Shown here: positions 17,476-53,022 of the stretch, piece after piece
Layout: each line of letters begins with the position of its first letter
Position numbering within the stretch: position 1 is the first letter of the stretch
NCBI RefSeq assembly: GCF_026210795.1
Contig: NC_089435.1
Span: 248,001-312,000, forward strand
Source of the DNA: Rhizophagus irregularis
Lineage: Eukaryota
Reading direction: 5' to 3'
Length of the DNA: 64,000 nt
Position numbers and translations under genes: made by a program
The notes under the pieces: model-generated
Database searches by the model: none
Told to the model about the DNA's origin: nothing
Seen by the model: only the letters and a program-made list of their open reading frames with translations

Positions 17476-17620
17476 AATGATGTTGATGATGATGATGATG
17501 TTGTTGTTGTTGATGATGATGATGATGATGATGATGTTGTTGATGATGATGATGATGTTGTTGTTGATGATGATGATGATGTTGTTGTTGATGTTGATGA
17601 TGATGTTGTTGTTGAGTTGT
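17476..17620 (-). repeat. (CAT/CAA)n trinucleotide tract encoding poly-His/Gln
   Basis: gat/gtt triplet runs on the plus strand; translates as QQQHHHQHQQQHHHHH... Confidence 0.9.
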
Positions 17621-20677: not shown

Positions 20678-23600
20678 ATGGATAATAAATTCATAAGCCG
20701 AGACACACTTCGAAAGCGTAAAGCTAGAGAGAATGAAACATCTAGTCAACGTGAAACACGCCTTGCAAAGCAACGTGAAATTACGCGGCAAAAAAGAGCA
20801 AGGGAAAATGCAAATGCTGAAGAGCGAGAGGCGCGTGATGCACGTGACAAAGAACGAAAACGCGTAAAGTTAGCAACAGAAACGGACGAACAACGTGAAA
20901 AATGTCTTAGTTACTACCGTGAACGAAGAAAATACCTGAAAAATATTCAAAATACAACGGCCCAAGACTTGAATTCGCAACAAAAAAATCCGCAGCAAAA
21001 GTATCAAGATAGTGGCGCGGACGGCGCAGAAGATGACGGCGCAGAAGATGGCGCAGACACACATACCGATGCTGGTGTACTTGGTGAATTCGAGCGAGAT
21101 TTTCTAAAGAAATTTCGTAACAAAGTTAATAAATTTAAACATTCGCTCTGCACGACGTGCAATGAAAATTTTCCATCAATTGTAATTATAAGGGGGAATG
21201 CCGATGTTGCCATAAAGAAAAGCAGCCAAAAAAATTTTCGAAAGATAACAATATGGACCCAGGCGAAGTACCTGATGAACTTCGTGATCTCACAGAAATT
21301 AAGGAAATGTTGGTTGCGCGAGTATTTCCCGTGATGTCGGTTTATAGACTTCGTGGAGGTCAGCATGGATATCGAGGAAACGTAATCAACTTTCCTCAAG
21401 ATGTCCAAGAATTTGCTTCAAAGCTTCCTAGGCATCCATCGTTATTAGATGTGCTTGTCATATGTCGTCAATCTGCGAGCAATGCGGAAGCGTTTAGGGA
21501 TTTCAAAGTTTGTCGTGATAAGGTCACTCAAGCGTTAATCTGGTTAAAACAAAATAATCGTTACTACGCTGACGTAATCATCGATCATGAAATTCTCCAG
21601 TCTCTGCCAATTGATGGCACAATTGATGACCAACTTCAAGATATTAATGAAGATATTGATTACGACGAAAGTGAGGATGACGTTATTACACGTACCTTCG
21701 TTCCACTTCCACCCTCAGCCAATCGTAAAGATACTGCTATTAGAAACACACTCGATCGAATACAAAATGAAAATCATCACATAATGTGGCCACAAATAAA
21801 TGGAAATCCTGTTAACGAATTCCAGACGTCAGGGTATATAGCATGCGCATTCCTAACCTTATACCCGACTGGAAGTGCAGACCTTCGCGCAGAACGTATT
21901 AGAGATATAAAGCCTGCCGAGTATTTCAGGTACCTTCTTCAATACAAGGACGGAAGATTTGCGCGTTATGCTCGTTGGCGGTATTTCACATTGAATTCCC
22001 AAATGCGTTGGCGGGCACTACAAGAAGGAAAGGTGTACGTTAAGCAAAATCTTACCGATGCGCAAATTACCGTTACAGATATTCAGGAAAGAATTACCCA
22101 AGGCGATAACTATATGGCCAATAGAATCATGCGATTTGGAGAAGGTTTACGTGGATCTCATCAATTTTGGTATGCTCGATGCAATGAATTAAATGATATG
22201 ATTAAGCAGATAGGACCGGATGGCTTAATCTTTTTTACGTTTAGTGCCGCCGATTTGCATTGGCCTGAGCTCCATTAGCTTATGCCATCTAACAGTAATC
22301 GTGAAACTTCAGCCAAACGCTATCACCAAAATATCGTGGATAATCCTCATATCGCGGACTGGTTTTTTCATAAGCGATTTGAAATTTTCTTTAATGACGT
22401 CTTAAAGAAACAATAGGATTTGGAAGATTGGTGGTTTAGGTTCGAATGGCAACATCGCGGCAGTGTTCACCACTGGTAAAAAAATGATTTATCCTACACA
22501 TATCTTACACATATTGGGTACTCAAAATGTAAAAAATCATACACAAATAATACACATATCATACACATATCGGGTACTAATATATATATCATACATATAT
22601 CAGGTACCTGATAGGTATACTATATATATAAATACCCGATATGTGTATGATATGTGTATTATTTGTGTATGATTTTCTACATTTTGAGTACCTGATATAT
22701 GTAAGATATATGTAGGATATGTGTAGGATAGACCATTTTTTTACCAGTGGCACGTGCATGGAATCGGAAAAAGAAAAAATGCACCTACAATAGAATGGAA
22801 GCATATGAAGGAAGATGAGAACAAAATGAATGAAATTATACAATATCTTGACAGTCTCGTTACCACAATAAATCCAGGACTCGATATGCCTGTTCCTAAA
22901 TGGCATCCGTGCCAAAAGAAAAGCAATGAATTAAATGATGACCAGCAAGACTACATCGACTTGATTAATAAATTGCAACGACATACCTGATGTAGTCCTG
23001 CGTACTGTCTTCGTATCAACCGAGAAGGACAACAAATTTGCCGGTTTAGATATCCTAAAGAAATTGTTGAAAGAACATTCGTGCAAGATGATAACAATGG
23101 ACAACCGGAGCTTGTAACGAGAAGGAACGATCAATACATAAATTCACATAGTCGACTTCAATTACAGGGTTGGAGGGCTAATGTGGATTTAAAGCCAATC
23201 CTTAGTATACATGCTGCGCTGCAATACGTTGCAAAATATGCAAGCAAAGCAGAACCGCGATCGTCAGCCTTTTCGGACGTATTAAATCGAATCCTTAGTG
23301 AAAGTCAGCCAGAAGATACGTTACTTGCTCCGGCCCAAAAGCTTTTATTACATAGTGTTGCGGAACAGGACATCTCTGCCCAAGAAACCTGCCATATTCT
23401 TCTCGGCCTTCCTCTTTACCATTCAAGTCAGCAATTTGTCTTCTTGAATCTTAACAAAGAAGCACCAAGATGGATTTGTGGTACTGGGGAAAGTGAAGAA
23501 TCTTATTCTGTTAATAATGATTCGGGGCGAACGGAGAAATCACCTTTGAAAATATATTGGGATCGACCTACCGAACTTGAAGATTTTACACTATTCCGGC

Positions 23601-33039: not shown

Positions 33040-34140
33040 AATATATACTTTCATTTTCGAGGTCCATCTTCTCTCAGCCAAGACTTCTCTTTATAAAATC
33101 TTCTTTTAGACCCTTTTCTTCACGTCTTCCTTTAGGTATGTGGGTTGGAGTGTGGGAGGGTGTGGGAGGGTGTGGGAGTGCGGGTTGGGAGTGTGGGAGT
33201 GTGGGAGTGTGAAAGTGTGGGAGTGCGGGTTGGGAGTGTGGAAGTGGGAGTGTGGGAGTGTGAAAGTATGGATTTGTGTGTGGGTTTGTGTATGTGGTGT
33301 TTCATTTTATTTTTTTTCGTCATCTTTTTTTTAGGTTTATTTCTCTCTGTCTAGGTCTTTTCTTTATTAGATCTTCTTTTAGGCCCTTTTTCTTTACATC
33401 TCTCTTTAGGTATGTGGGTTGGGAGTGTGGGTGGTGTGGTGTGGGAGTGTGGGTTGGGAGTGTGGGTTGGGAGTGCGAGTGGGTGTGGGAGTGTGAGAGT
33501 GTGGTGTGGGAGTGTGAGTTTGGAGTGCGGAGTGTGAGAGTGTGGTGTGGGAGTGCGGGTTGGGAGTGTGGGAGTGTGGGTTGGGGGTGCGGGTGGGTGT
33601 GGGGAGTGCGGGTTGGGAGTGTGGAAGTGGGAGTGTAGGAGTGTGAAAGTATGGATTTGTGTGTGGGTTTGTGTATGTGGTGTTTCATTTTTTTTTTTTC
33701 ATCATCTTTTTTTTAGGTTTATCTTCTCTCTGCCTAGGTCTTCACTTTATTAGATCTTCCTTTAGACCCTTTTTCTTTACGTCTCTCTTTAGGTATGTGG
33801 GTTGGGAGTGTGGGTGGTGTGGGAGTGCGTGGGTGCGGGTTGGGAGTGTGGGTGTGGGAGTGTGGGTGGGTGTGAGGAGTGCGGGTTGGAAGTGTGGGAG
33901 TGTGGGTGGGTGTGAGGAGTGCGGTTGGAAGTGGGAGTGTGGGAGTGTGGGTCGGGAGTGGGTGGGTGTGGGTGTGGATTGGGAGTGTAGGTGGTTGGGA
34001 GTGTAGTGTGGGAGTGTGGAGTGTGTGTGGCTTATTTTTTTTCGTATTCCTTTTTTTTAGGTCTATCTTCTCTCCATCTAGGTTTTCTCTTTATTAGGTC
34101 TTTTTTCTTTTAGGCCTTTTTCTTTACATCTTCCTTTCAT
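33040..34140 (+). repeat. Compound repeat: four pyrimidine-rich ~100-bp blocks separated by (GTGGGAGT)-type G-rich tracts
   Basis: Seen directly; the overlapping ORFs here are low-complexity artefacts. Confidence 0.9.
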
Positions 34141-44289: not shown

Positions 44290-44568
44290 CACTAGTAAAA
44301 AAATGATTTATCCTACACATATCTTACACATATTGGGTACTCAAAATGTAGAAAATCATACATAAATAATACACATATCATACACATATCGGGTACTAAT
44401 ATATATATCATACATATATCAGGTACCTGATAGGTATACTATATATATAAATACCCGATATGTGTATGATATGTGTATTATTTGTGTATGATTTTCTACA
44501 TTTTGAGTACCTGATATATGTAAGATATGTGTAGGATATGTGTAGGATAGACCATTTTTTTACCAGTG
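44290..44568. mobile_element. CACTA-type MITE (279 bp), copy 2
   Basis: Starts CACTA and ends ccagtg; perfect 3-bp TSD gta. Confidence 0.92.
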
Positions 44569-45246: not shown

Positions 45247-46203
45247 TTTCTATACATACAAATTGACATCATTCAAAAAAATGTTCAGAGGACAGAAATT
45301 TTTTTGGTAGTTAATATCTTACTTATATATCATCACTATATGGCTATATTCCATATCCTTAGACAATTTGACTTGATGATGAATGTTCATTTACCCTCGT
45401 TAAAATATAATTTATTCTTATAATCAATTTCTTAAATAAAAATAGAGTTAGGACAAATAAATATTTTTATAATAAATAATAATAATAATAATAAAATAAT
45501 GTAAAAATTATAATGTAATCATCCACCCAAATCCATTCTTTAAAAAACTAAAAGGTTTTGGATTGTAAATTAAATCTTTAAATGAAGCATATTGGTGATT
45601 TAAAAATAAAAAATAAAAAAATAAAATATTCAAATTTTTTTTTTAATTTGATTACATTAGCATAAATTAATATATTTATCTTAGCATGTACATTTGTACT
45701 TATACATTAAATAGAATAAAGTTAGAAGACTTTAGTTTATCAAGAAAAAAAATAACTGTTCATTATATTTAAAATAAAAGTCAATAAATATAGATTAAAT
45801 ATAATTAGCTATTAAATAAGTATAAAAAATTTTACATTTTATTATTGAAATATTATTATTTTGATAATTTATATCTCATAATTGGAAAAGTTATAAAAAA
45901 AAGATTTATTTAAATTACAAACTAAGAAACTTGTAAAATATTACTTATTACTACTCTGATCTTAGTGTTTTAAATAATTCTAAGTATAATAAAAAAAAAG
46001 TGAATATAAATATTTAAGCTAAAAAAAAAGAATTATTTAAATTACAAACTAAGATACTTGTAAAATATTTTACTACTCTTGCCTTAGTGTTTAAATAAAT
46101 CTATACAGAATAAAATAAAAAACAATTTCTTTTGAATGCGTAATATCAAATATCACTTAAAAAAAGCTATAAATTTTTTTAAAAATAAACTGACAATGAT
46201 TAG

Positions 46204-49200
46204 TTAATTTTCATCTGTTTCAATAATTATATAAATAAATTAATTTTCATATAAATAATTTGCAAGATTAATTCTTTTATATATCATAGTACATACCTAG
46301 TGACCCTAAATCCTTAATTATATAATCATTCAAATCTTCACTTACTAGCATTTCATTTGTTTTTACACTAGCTCGTGAATCTTCACTTTCAAGAATTTCA
46401 TTCAATTTTTTACTAGTAAAACCAAGTAAGCGACTTTTATAACATGCTTGTGGATGTGATTCGGTAATAAGATTGTTATACTGCCCAATTGGCGCATTTA
46501 TAAATTCCACAATATTGCTTTTTAATTCTTCATTAGTTTGATCATCATCAGGATGGAAAATCCATTTTTCAATAGTTTTTAATACTTCTTTAGAAGATGG
46601 TCTTTTTGATGAATCTTCATTCCAACATTCTTTCATTAAATCTACATAACATTGTGGAGTATTTTCGATAATTTCAGGACGTTCACCTTTACAAATACTG
46701 AAACTAAGTTGAATATCATGTGCTCTATTATTAAATGGTGGTACCCCAGATGTAAGTTCCCACATAATCATAGAAAAACTATATATATCACTAGCTGGAG
46801 TATAAGATTTGCCTCTTAAAACTTCAGGAGCCATAAATGGCACTACACCATAAATATCATACTTTTTCAAAAATGATTTTACAGGTTGACATAATCCTAA
46901 ATCACTAATATAAATTTTATCACTATACACATCATCATTATGATTTAAAATATTACCATCATGAAAATCACAATGAATAAGATTTTTTTCATGTATATCA
47001 CTAAGTCCAGAAATAATTTCGTACAACATATATAATTTTTGATTCCAATTATTTTTGACTATTCTTGTTAAATTTTCTCTTAAATTGCCTTTATTTGCAT
47101 ACTCCATTACTACCATATATTTTGAAGTATTTGGATCTTCTGTGAATCCATAAACATCTATAATATCACTTGAAGCTGAAACACTTGTATGATATTCCCA
47201 CTATAAATAATAATAATAATTTATTAATATAAATAAATTTTAATTTAAATTAAAAATAGAAAATAATATACTATCATACTTCTTTTAAAAATTCATTTAA
47301 ATTTTCATTTAAATTCTTGTGGCATTTAAGAATTACTTGATTCTTTAACCAAGTAGCTTTATATATAGTACCAAATCCTCCTTCATTAAGATATTCAACA
47401 CTTTCAAATTTGTTATAAGGAATCCATCTTAATTCTTTTTCAAGAATAAAATTATCTATAACTGTATTTCCACTTTTCCCAAATCTATAAATTTAAATAA
47501 TTAAAATTATATATAGATATTATAGATTGTATTATAATTTACACAAAATAAATTATTACTTACTCTAAAATTTAAATATGAATTTAATGTAATACAATAT
47601 AAGTCTTAATTTTTGGATAAATATATACAATAACCTATAATTTACAACTTACCAACTAAAGTAACAGATGTTTTTCAAATGGAAGAATTCAGTTAACAAA
47701 TAAATATTATATAAATATATAATGATACATATACTTACAAGCTAGATCATAAATAATTTTTTTTTAATAAAGAAATTAGTTAGTTTAAATTATATGTAAA
47801 TGTTATAACAATAAGTAATAATAGAATTAAATAAATAACTTATAACTTACGATCTATTTAAATAAAGAAATTAGGTAGTTTAAATTATATGTAAATATTA
47901 TAACAATAAGTAATAATAGAATTAAATAAATAACTTACTCCCTATATTATTTAATAATTTTTTAAATAAAGAAATTAGTTAGTTTAAATTATATGTAAAT
48001 ATTATAACAATAAGTAATAATAGAATTAAATAAATAACTTACTCCCTATATTATTTAATAATTTTTTAAATAAAGAAATTAGTTAGTTTAAATTATATGT
48101 AAATGTTATAACAATAAGTAATAATAGAATTAAATAAATAACTTACACCCTATATTATTTAATAATTTTTTAAATAAAGAAATTAGTTAGTTTAAATTAT
48201 ATGTAAATATTATAACAATAAGTAATAATAGAATTAAATAAATAACTTACCATCTATAAAATAATTTTTTAAATAAAGAAATTAGTTAGTTTAAATTATA
48301 TGTAAATATTATAACAATAAGTAATAATAGAATTAAATAAATAACTTACGAGCTATATTATTTAATAATTTTTTAAATAAAGAAATTAGTTAGTTTAAAT
48401 TATATGTAAATATTAAAACAATAAGTAATAATAGAATTAAATAAATAACTTACTCCCTATATTATTTAATAATTTTTTAAATAAAGAAATTAGTTGTTTA
48501 AATTATATGTAAATATTATAACAATAAGTAATAATAGAATTAAATAAATAACTTACTCCCTATATTATTTAATAATTTTTTAAATAAAGAAATTAGTTAG
48601 TTTAAATTATATGTAAATGTTATAACAATAAGTAATAATAGAATTAAATAAATAACTTACGAACTATATTATTTAATAATTTTTTAAATAAAGAAATTAG
48701 TTAGTTTAAATTATATGTAAATATTATAACAATAAGTAATAATAGAATTAAATAAATAACTTACGAACTATATTATTTAATAATTTTTTAAATAAAGAAA
48801 TTAGTTAGTTTAAATTATATGTAAATATTATAACAATAAGTAATAATAGAATTAAATAAATAACTTACGAACTATATTATTTAATAATTTTTTAAATAAA
48901 GAAATTAGTTAGTTTAAATTATATGTAAATATTATAACAATAAGTAATAATAGAATTAAATAAATAACTTACTCCCTATATTATTTAATAATTTTTTAAA
49001 TAAAGAAATTAGTTAGTTTAAATTATATGTAAATGTTATAACAATAAGTAATAATAGAATTAAATAAATAACTTACACCCTATATTATTTAATAATTTTT
49101 TAAATAAAGAAATTAGTTAGTTTAAATTATATGTAAATATTATAACAATAAGTAATAATAGAATTAAATAAATAACTTACCATCTATAAAATAATTTTTT

Positions 49201-50277
49201 AAATAAAGAAATTAGTTAGTTTAAATTATATGTAAATATTATAACAATAAGTAATAATAGAATTAAATAAATAACTTACTCCCTATATTATTTAATAATT
49301 TTTTAAATAAAGAAATTAGTTAGTTTAAATTATATGTAAATGTTATAACAATAAGTAATAATAGAATTAAATAAATAACTTACGAGCTATATTATTTAAT
49401 AATTTTTTAAATAAAGAAATTAGTTAGTTTAAATTATATGTAAATATTATAACAATAAGTAATAATAGAATTAAATAAATAACTTACCATCTATAAAATA
49501 ATTTTTTAAATAAAGAAATTAGTTAGTTTAAATTATATGTAAATATTATAACAATAAGTAATAATAGAATTAAATAAATAACTTACTCCCTATATTATTT
49601 AATAATTTTTTAAACAAAGAAATTAGTTAGTTTAAATTATATGTAAATGTTATAACAATAAGTAATAATAGAATTAAATAAATAACTTACTCCCTATATT
49701 ATTTAATAATTTTTTAAATAAAGAAATTAGTTAGTTTAAATTATATGTAAATATTATAACAATAAGTAATAATAGAATTAAATAAATAACTTACGAGCTA
49801 TATTATTTAATAATTTTTTAAATAAAGAAATTAGTTAGTTTAAATTATATGTAAATATTATAACAAATAAGTAATAATAGAATTAAATAAATAACTTACC
49901 ATCTATAAAATAATTTTTTAAATAAAGAAATTAGTTAGTTTAAATTATATGTAAATATTATAATGATAAGTAATAATATAATTAAATAAATATCTTACCA
50001 TCTATAAAATAAATTTTTAAATAATGAAATTAGTTAAATTATATAAATAATATAAATATAGATATCATATAACTTACACCCTGTAGTATTATTAATTATT
50101 AATTTGTTAGATATAAAGATAATATAAAAGTATTTACTGTAAATTATATATATTACTTACAATCTAGTTATTTAAATTAAGAATATAATTAGTTGAATAA
50201 TGTAAAATATTGAATTGTTTATAAATAAAAACTTAATATTTCAGCTTGTTTGATATACCTTTAATATGTTGGTCCAT
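46204..50277 (-). CDS. TKL-like Ser/Thr(Tyr) kinase with a micro-exon-encoded N-terminus. Predicted 31 exons, ~405 aa: 50277-50259; 26 x 3-nt exons from 50163-50161 down to 47655-47653; 1-nt exon 47564; 47484-47280; 47200-46297; 46214-46204
   Basis: Kinase motifs GGFGTIYKA, VILK, HCDFHDGN, DLG, PFMAPE and DIYSF are intact. All predicted introns are GT..AG and 76-109 nt. The spliced frame is open: MDQHIKDWYDARRNARNGWILLRRTHGWRNPFEFGKSGNTVIDNFI... Kinase identity is certain; micro-exon usage is predicted. Confidence 0.8.
47742..50040 (-). repeat. Tandem array of ~22 near-identical units, mostly 99-105 bp; each unit is one intron plus a variable 3-nt exon
   Basis: Plus-strand unit: acttac[NNN]cta...aaagaaattagttagtttaaattatatgtaaat(a/g)ttataacaataagtaataatagaattaaataaata. 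NNN is tcc, acc, cat, gag, gaa or gat. Confidence 0.95.
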
Positions 50278-53022
50278 TACTATATCAAAATTCTCAAATT
50301 CTCCCCAACTGAAAAAGATAAAGTAAATATCTTTTTTTCTTTTTTTTTATTATTGAGCGCCTTTATCAGTATTAATAAATATGGTAATAATATTTATGCA
50401 AAATACATTATTTGTTATGTGCAAAACGATTGATCACAAGTACAAGCATTGCATCATTGCATGCATACTATATGACAAACAAATTTAGCACAACTGGAAT
50501 GTATATCAATTATTAATTGCAGTAACTGGTTAATCATTTCATCTTAGGTAATTATTAAGTACCAATGAAATGATTATCATTCATTAGCTTGAAGATAAGA
50601 ATGCCAAAAGCCCGTTTAGTTTTAATCATAGCATTATTTTTTAAATAAATTTATTGATCGTACTGACCATGAAATGCAATATATGGTTAATTTGATGCCC
50701 AAATATAGCTTACTTTTCCAGCATTTTTATATTAAGCTTGAAGCTTAAAGCATATACTTAAATGTAGGCTTAAGTATAAGTTTCAAACTTCAAGTTTCAA
50801 GTATTGGATCCACAGTTAGCTTCTCTACAGATGGCAGGTTAATATATATATATATATTTTTTTTAAAAAAAACGTGATTCTTTTTCAAAAAAAAAAAATG
50901 ATAATCGTATACGTAATCATGTACATGTACGTAACAAAATGGTAAAAATGATAAGCATAATTATTTATTTACTATTGTTACCGGTTGTATCAGTAATTAA
51001 GAGTCGTATAACTAGCAGTATTATATCATATAATTACTCGATTACCAACAAGATTCTTACTCAATACTACCTATCCTGGTATTCCGGTATTGTTCGTTAA
51101 GAATTGTCCAGGTGAATAACTACAAAATATGATAAATAATAATACGCAATGGTTATAGAAACAAATGTTAAATGACTGTCAGAAATAACGTGTAAATTTA
51201 ACCAAAGTATAATGATTTTATTAATAGATATAGGACTTCAGGCTTTTACAACAAAGTGATAGAGAAAAGTGATAGGGAATATATTTTAAGACAATTTACT
51301 AGGAGAATATATATATTAAGGTAACTGCTTCTATCAAAGAGTTGGCAGAAGGTATATTTATATATTCATATTAACGATTGTTATTGAATTTATTGAATGA
51401 TATTTTGTAGTATCATATAAAAGTTTATTATTAGAGATTTTTTTGACGATCATTATAATTTATAGTAATCCCTGTTAAAATTCACAAATTCTGTGAGAAC
51501 GCTCCAAATAGTTGTTTTTTTTCATATGATATCTCCCTTTTCAAAAAAAAGTAAACAATTCAAGCCTTTTTAGCTTCTTTAGATACTTCTCAATAAGAAA
51601 AAAAAAATGTTTTTCTTTAGTATTTTCAAAAGAGTGAGGTATTACGTTGTTCTTTGGGTTCTCGTGTATTTGTCTAATCTTTCATTATTGCACAAAGACT
51701 AATAATGCATAGTTTATCGAATTTTTAAAATTTCGGAAATTTTAATGGGTTCTATTTCAAAGTGTGCGCAGATAAATTACTTTCCGAGATATAATTTATT
51801 AATATCAGAAAATAAAGTTAAAAAATCCGAATGAATCTAAAATACCCATATTCAATTCATAACCGGCATAAATTAAGCCATTTCGTATAATCTCTTAATA
51901 TGGTAAATACGTGCATCATTTGGTAAAGGAAATAGAATTCAAATGTATTATTCTGAGGCGCAGAATACAGAATTATCAGTCACTGGCGCAGCGCCAATCA
52001 CTAATTAAAATGTTTGTACTACATAAATTAGCCTATCTTCATTTAGTTGGGACAAAGATTTTAACAAAATATCACTTTTTTTACGATACATTAACCAATT
52101 TTAGTTCTTTCAAAAGTTTTTTACGTGACGAGCCAACCATTAGTATAGTTGTATTGTTGTAAAATTTTGTTGTAAAATTTGGTTGAAAGATTTATATGTA
52201 CGTTGTTGATAAATAGCTGAGAAGGTGAATTCTTTATTATACAGTAAGCGCCAGAACTAAAAAATGTTTAGTTTATAATTACATGTTTCAGAATAATATT
52301 TATTAATCAATAACTTTTTTACATCAGATTTATATGACAGCAACCAACTAAAATAATATTATTTTCGTTTAAAAACAAGATCTTAAATAAAAGTAGTATA
52401 ATTTTGAAGGCTAAATTTGCTTTTATAGCTTGAAAACATTCTATTTATTTGTAAATTTAAAAAAATAGCCAACTACCTGTTATTAATAAAGTTTACATGT
52501 GACGAATAAACCAGAAATTTGAATATTTACTAATAACAAGAAAGTTTCCTAATATTATTTCATTGGATTTATTCGACTCAATTCCTATATATCAGCTTAA
52601 ATTCGTTTGATAGAATATTATGTAAATAATAAAAGTAATACTAAATTATTAGTATTCCTAATATTTATGCATATTATATAATTTAAATTTATTTACTAAT
52701 AGATAAATTGTAAATTATTTATACTGTATATAAAAATTAAGATATAATTGTTGTTTTCAATATTTTTTATAGTCTAATAAAGAAATTCGTGTTAACGAAA
52801 AAAAAACTGTAAAGAGTAATTACTAAATGATTCATTCGTTTATTGTTTACTAATTGGTGAAAAAAAAAAATATTTTTTAGAATTTTATAAATTGGATAAG
52901 AATGGTTTCACAACAAACTTAATTAATAAAGAGTAATCATGGTCATATAAAAATGTATGAAATACATATATTGATAAGAAATAATATATTATATCGAAAA
53001 TAATAAATTTTAAAATATATAA

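Follow-up and report, generated by a model that had tools for sequence, protein, structure and literature searches.

A probable one-nucleotide exon between a three-base exon array and a kinase domain in Rhizophagus irregularis

Does a single nucleotide lying between two introns serve as an exon, and does the reading frame of the kinase that follows leave no other choice? The question is raised by a locus in a 64-kb window, the whole stretch of Rhizophagus irregularis DNA analysed here (64,000 nucleotides). The minus strand reads TAG|A|GTAAGT around the A at 47564, one base flanked by AG and GT, with a normal GT..AG intron on each side (88 nt upstream, 79 nt downstream). These features, read directly from the DNA, are as originally described. 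The junction is composed as follows.

47653–47655, minus strand: last three-base exon, TTG, which supplies the G of a Glu codon; part of the RNA loose end described below.
47565–47652, minus strand: upstream intron of 88 nt, GTAAGT..TAG, with GT-AG ends.
47564, minus strand: one-base exon (A), middle base of the Glu32 codon G|A|A; TAG|A|GTAAGT, RNA loose end, kept in a close paralog (L001).
47485–47563, minus strand: downstream intron of 79 nt, GTAAGT..TAG, phase 2; record 7 of sequencing run X1 aligns exactly to 47484 and X1 gives no cover here.
47280–47484, minus strand: kinase exon from A|TTT (F-G-K-S-G-N), which needs phase 2, with the Gly-rich loop and the VILK lysine; X1 records 5 and 7.

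Joined by their coordinates, the exons give 408 residues without a stop, and the kinase is entered through N-P-F-E-F-G-K-S-G-N. The Glu codon is assembled from three exons, as had been proposed, and the RNA loose end agrees. With the A omitted from the same joining, the frame stops after 41 residues. Shuffling the 168-nt stretch 200,000 times produced a YAG-N-GTRAG site by chance in 179 cases (0.09%); in the window, both strands counted, the one at 47564 stands alone. A recursive (zero-length) splice site was ruled out, one base being found between AG and GT and in RNA. The A is very likely a genuine spliceosomal one-base exon through which the kinase stays in frame. We assign a probability of roughly 80% to the fuller reading, in which it is a true exon in most transcripts and acts as a fixed adaptor between a phase-1 chain and the phase-2 kinase exon, not as a switch; its inclusion in most transcripts is likely.

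The original prediction called this exon obligatory. The exon itself is borne out by the X1 loose end, which contains the A, by TAG-A-GTAAG in L001 and by E-F-G-K in a relative that lacks introns at this place (L002). That the frame alone forces it does not hold, since two further acceptors lie 23 and 29 nt into the kinase exon:

47456–47464, minus strand: two in-frame bypass acceptors, a CAG ending at 47462 and a TAG ending at 47456, inside the kinase exon.

Splicing of the last three-base exon to 47461 or 47455, without the A, would lose E-F-G-K-S-G-N and leave open products of 400 and 398 residues, respectively. With such acceptors present the frame is not decisive, and the case therefore rests on RNA and conservation. 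The same holds for the argument from the protein: the exon is needed for a conserved sequence, as L002, intron-free at this place, has E-F-G-K, though the bypass acceptors exist.

Four of the 24 listed runs (X1, X2, X3 and X15) were compared over 46200-47690, as assembled contigs. None is recorded as RNA: X1 and X3 were judged to be RNA, X2 and X15 to be DNA, by intron cover alone. Among the four, the junction of this gene is covered only by X1, which the run index marks as 'RNA?' by guess and whose RNA nature we infer from a spliced pattern: its record 5 joins 47280 to 47200, and 47500-47690 is without cover. Record 7 (315 nt, depth 27) agrees with 47484-47292 at every letter; a further 122 letters upstream of that match are loose. 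As it reaches 47484, the acceptor at 47485 was used in that contig and the bypass sites were not. Record 6, which comes from a paralog (14 differences, 6 gap letters), stops at that position too.

The loose-end consensus of 30 letters pools record 6, from the paralog, with record 7, from this gene, and was compared with the splicing models by eye. Its first 10 letters all agree with the model in which the A is kept (ATC, CTT, TTG and A, on the gene strand). The cDNA junction suggested as a check thus favours the form with the exon (23 of 30 letters) over the form without it (9 of 30), with a paralog mixed into the consensus. In line with the micro-exon model, the loose end opens with the last three micro-exons and the A. 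The same comparison eliminated models with 7-nt extensions of the final two micro-exons, with a 6-nt exon at 47634, or with one or the other flanking intron retained.

How much of this consensus belongs to the gene itself can be gauged from its ambiguities. By hand arithmetic, its agreement of 0.73 is what unweighted counting gives when 16 of 30 letters differ between the contigs, and such counting also fits the other two- and three-contig rows of the same table. All seven mismatches are alphabetically earlier letters than those of the model (three against T, four A against C), a pattern expected about once in 80 by chance, again by hand arithmetic. Ties between the two contigs would therefore go to the earlier letter. 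Under this rule each of the two contigs must have the leading T, and the model accommodates record 7 across its last ~10 micro-exons. We infer that this gene's own contig, and not just the paralog's, carries the A. If the paralog supplied all the consensus letters, the result would stand at the level of the family, with the junction of this gene less tightly constrained.

The length of the loose end is also accounted for: with the A kept, its 122 letters equal 98 coding letters plus 24 of 5' UTR, which places the contig start at 50301. A TCAGTT, which we take to be an initiator-like motif, lies at 50310, 9 nt before that start; it could equally be the acceptor of a 5' UTR intron.

A paralog contig of X3 (depth 2.6) shows 25 letters of the upstream intron, then the A, then the kinase exon directly. 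It may be a splicing intermediate from which the downstream intron was removed first; a paralog whose genome has lost that intron is at least as likely. The first of these readings is weakened by the DNA-like X2 and X15, whose joints from 47400 to 47564, with the same 25-letter side and unknown letters between, land on the same 47564. On both readings, the A and the kinase exon share one frame.

The second support comes from relatives. A metagenome scan returned 12 loci, of which one (L001) is a close paralog and another (L002) a distant member of the family; scans of viral (1 locus) and prokaryote genomes (3 loci) gave distant kinases only. L001, with 82% protein identity, keeps both TAG-A-GTAAG and the edge of the kinase exon, and both of its introns have small deletions. 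The proposed conservation of TAG-N-GTAAG is accordingly seen in 1 of 1 close paralog loci with DNA. L002 is without an intron here, and its E-F-G-K-W-T-S-G-N aligns with E-F-G-K-S-G-N of this gene.

These data also address where the extra base comes from. An alignment alone cannot trace a single base to its origin, and the A in RNA might in principle reflect a difference between alleles, faulty assembly at the exon edge or an inserted base, and not 47564. We regard such an origin as the least probable of the alternatives: a canonical TAG-A-GTAAGT sits exactly where it is needed, at the low chance frequency given above, the site and the exon edge are conserved in L001, and DNA-like paralog contigs span the region.

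Public protein models of the family disagree at this very border. Three protein searches (best 120 of 1169, 47 of 47 and best 120 of 145) gave 233 distinct proteins; an FGKSGN-type border occurs in 95 of those listed and is absent from the model in 138. The counts are by protein letters, on predicted models in which alleles of one locus are maybe counted repeatedly. In the 95, the border is preceded by S-K in 21, C/G/R-K in 9, N/I-L-E in 8, Y-R in 9 and another E in 1; the model starts at F/Y-G in 14, and 33 are of other kinds. A read-through L-N-F-R-V is found in 3 of the 138 listed borderless proteins, and this gene's intron translates as ..I-T-L-N-S-Y-L-N-F-R-V-S-N-N-L-F. To judge by their letters, the S-K, N/I-L-E and L-N-F-R-V classes look like mis-annotated read-throughs of the tag-A-gt site; they are labelled R. 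irregularis, R. diaphanus and R. clarus. A kinase entry of the form P-[FL]-[ED]-[FY]-G was found in 0 of the 233 listed proteins, the motif being a narrow one. Six models (P0023, P0028, P0042, P0059, P0139 and P0182) have a longer, acidic first exon with ..E-F-E-G-S.. repeats, ending in E-S-K-D; this end appears to correspond to the phase-1 border of this gene's first exon.

Two alternative readings of the junction draw on these models. The first is a longer exon:

47560–47564, minus strand: 5-nt reading AGTAA|GT with donor at 47559, which suits frame 0 and is disfavoured by the RNA loose end.

Here the micro-exons would be read in frame 0, entering the kinase as ..L-S-K-F-G-K. The S-K class just counted includes P0001, the public model of this gene, which begins M-S-K-F-G-K and probably uses this AGTAA choice. 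We find this exon scarcely credible nonetheless: only 7 of 30 loose-end letters fit it and its four extra bases are missing there, the ATG exon ends in phase 1 and cannot join a frame-0 chain, and L002 has E, not S-K, before F-G-K. Bypass of the site, the second reading, gains from its two open routes and from public models that start the exon at D-F-I (e.g. P0023, P0028 and P0139). It is very improbable, given that cover by X1 record 7 extends to 47484, that the CAG at 47462 is CAA in L001 and in most of the paralog depth, and that the 14 border-bearing models noted above begin exactly at F/Y-G; minor use of these acceptors would not be surprising.

The one-base exon, as we read it, closes a chain of extremely short exons.

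50259–50277, minus strand: first coding exon, ATG plus 16 nt (19 nt in all), ending in phase 1; placed from the open frame.
47653–50163, minus strand: chain of 26 three-base exons in phase 1, with 9 distinct triplets and introns of 76-109 nt; YAG-NNN-GTAAG sites.

The 26 YAG-NNN-GTAAG sites run from 50163 to 47653, most of them within a 104-nt tandem repeat of 21.2 copies, 95% alike. The exon content fits the 30 letters of the RNA loose end for the last ~10 exons and is deduced from the length of that end for the others. Altogether, 27 exons of 3 nt or less stand in succession, and 28 introns have to be removed for ~79 coding bases. Between 47759 and 50036 a higher-order period of 307 nt overlies the array, and the units before ATG exons have a different, 5-nt shorter intron end; this points to block duplication by unequal crossover. 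A TAG-6 nt-GTAAG site at 51066-51061 (minus strand), ~800 nt upstream of the ATG, may be a 5' UTR micro-exon or due to chance.

Joining any pair of exons within the array creates a stop in 0 of 325 pairs, a composition that would permit alternative splicing. Skipping the TTG exon alone gives a TAA stop, and 5 of the 26 three-base exons give TAA if they come last before the A, including the one that precedes TTG. Skips within the array are therefore harmless to the frame, and the last two micro-exons are constrained; this pattern could be chance, given only 9 distinct triplets, and the contigs compared showed no alternative form.

How would a spliceosome handle a one-base exon? Each short, AT-rich intron would most likely be recognised singly, by intron definition, and the introns would leave one at a time; no complex would then have to span the single base. 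The downstream 79-nt intron has a branch-like TTAAT. The upstream 88-nt intron is the sole case among 29 introns whose last 50 nt are without YTRAY, which we take to be the branch-point motif. The downstream intron would probably be removed first and the upstream one more slowly or later, as it has no consensus branch motif. Once the downstream intron is gone, the A would be the first base of a 206-nt exon. Sequential intron removal of this kind has been proposed for the one-base exon of APC11 (PMC4674806). As to its origin, the exon may date from the time when a conserved Glu codon acquired a second intron, a single base away from the first, and it would have been retained since losing the A truncates the kinase. 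The layout of array and one-base exon would be common to many paralogs in three Rhizophagus species, with the single base fitting a variable N-terminal module to the kinase frame in a fixed manner, not as a switch.

A switch had been suggested: the exon would be real and conditionally skipped, giving the 41-residue product or mRNA decay and turning the kinase off. The frame indeed stops at residue 41 without the A, the missing YTRAY of the upstream intron could make inclusion fragile, and the one-base exons of plant VPS55 are alternatively used in some lineages, according to the accessible part of that report (PMC8831610). We consider regulated skipping unlikely, given the strong consensus of both donor (GTAAGT) and acceptor (TTTTAG) and the constitutive use of the APC11 one-base exon (PMC4674806). 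No skipped junction was seen among the contigs of the four runs, which is weak evidence, as assembled contigs drop rare forms.

A broader reading, tentative and on balance doubtful, extends the fixed adaptor to a whole Rhizophagus kinase subfamily, in which fast-expanding arrays of codon-straddling three-base exons, combinatorially spliced as in the Tuber nank genes, would produce hypervariable N-termini, each combination reaching the kinase frame through a single, family-wide one-base gate. Were this true, the one-base exon and the base preceding it would choose between Glu, Lys, Gln and stop, and arbuscular mycorrhizal (AM) fungi would possess a splice-coded generator of diversity that serves signalling or the recognition of nonself and is hidden from all current annotations.

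The protein behind this junction is recognisable as a kinase. Beyond the exon entered through the A, it continues as follows.

47201–47279, minus strand: 79-nt intron, removed in X1, whose record 5 joins 47280 to 47200.
46277–47200, minus strand: main kinase exon (HCDFHDGN, DLG, APE), with a donor at 46296 or the stop at 46277.

The main exon is 100% identical to P0001 of Rhizophagus irregularis, which scores 144.1 bits with PF07714 against a cut-off of 23.1, and the catalytic motifs GGFG, VILK, EFLKE, HCDFHxGN, DLG and APE are all found. The gene is accordingly assigned to the PF07714 (TKL-like) protein kinases. X1 record 1 crosses 46296-46215 ungapped; the last intron implied by P0001 (46296-46215, minus strand; P0001 ends in ..G-S-L-D-E-N) is thus retained in that record, which gives ..G-S-L-G-M-Y-Y-D-I.

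Elsewhere in the window, a decayed kinase gene with Sel1-like repeats, stops and frameshifts was recognised by eye at 54500-53020 (minus strand), through motifs that we take to mark such genes. The same 30-nt and 11-nt repeats occur at 22534-22730 and 44367-44549, 22 kb apart, which suggests a dispersed element. G-rich repeats of the TGGGAG type with a strong strand skew occupy 33142-34030, and 43 ATG triplets form a run at 17477-17605.

The family to which the gene belongs is itself known. Tyrosine-kinase-like genes are expanded in Rhizophagus irregularis, as stated in the accessible part of PMC4219462. Our gene shares the PF07714 membership of that family; it has 1169 relatives in total, and among the best 120 of them all species-named ones are Rhizophagus. 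What sets it apart is that the public N-termini disagree both with one another and with the RNA, which suggests that the N-termini of many kinases in a model AM fungus are wrongly annotated. Among the literature matches listed, no description of micro-exons in this tyrosine-kinase-like family was found. Nor did those matches include a paper on micro-exons in Rhizophagus or Glomeromycota, which subscription papers and the supplements of genome papers may mention.

One-base exons have been published elsewhere, and the comparisons that follow draw on the accessible portions of the reports. The closest fungal case is the one-nucleotide exon of the Fusarium CYP621A P450 genes (PMC12940212), where one base likewise joins a phase-1 to a phase-2 border as the middle base of a conserved codon, was missed by annotation, and is supported by an intronless relative and by transcripts. 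The Fusarium exon, as described there, is solitary between ordinary exons in a conserved motif, whereas ours ends a 26-exon chain in an expanded kinase family and the three bases of its codon come from three exons, two of them micro-exons. In plants, one-nucleotide exons have been published for APC11 (Arabidopsis; PMC4674806) and VPS55 (PMC8831610). From what these accounts give, they too consist of a single base between GT-AG introns that is frame-essential, near the N-terminus and mis-annotated, with sequential intron removal proposed. APC11 is mutation-proven and the genes are single- or low-copy; our exon is known from sequence and RNA contigs, in an expanded family, with short introns (79 and 88 nt) and neighbouring exons that, unlike those of APC11, are themselves 3 nt long. 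Long-read annotation of Coprinopsis cinerea lists 13 one-nt exons in 13 genes (PMC12230235), so that such exons recur in fungi; this species is a basidiomycete, and the excerpt available describes no array context.

For the array, the nearest counterpart is found in the nank (NACHT-ankyrin) genes of Tuber melanosporum, with codon-sized, alternatively spliced mini-exons (Iotti et al. 2012, known to us as cited in PMC4986451). Going by that citation, both systems belong to mycorrhizal fungi and place multiple 3-nt exons in tandem within an expanded gene family. The nank genes are NLR-like host genes, whereas ours encodes a protein kinase; in addition, its exons straddle codons (phase 1), lie in a young 104-nt tandem repeat and end in a one-base exon. 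The kinase array resembles the Tuber system and is not a member of it.

One-base exons and codon-sized arrays are thus both already published; their combination in an AM-fungal kinase family was not found among the literature matches listed. Much of the interest of the finding is carried by the surrounding array. If alternatively spliced, it would give fungi with a still unexplained expansion of kinases one more way to vary their proteins. One-base exons are rare and no longer unique; the 28-intron chain that ends in this one offers a strong test, provided by nature, for intron definition and for the order in which introns are spliced.
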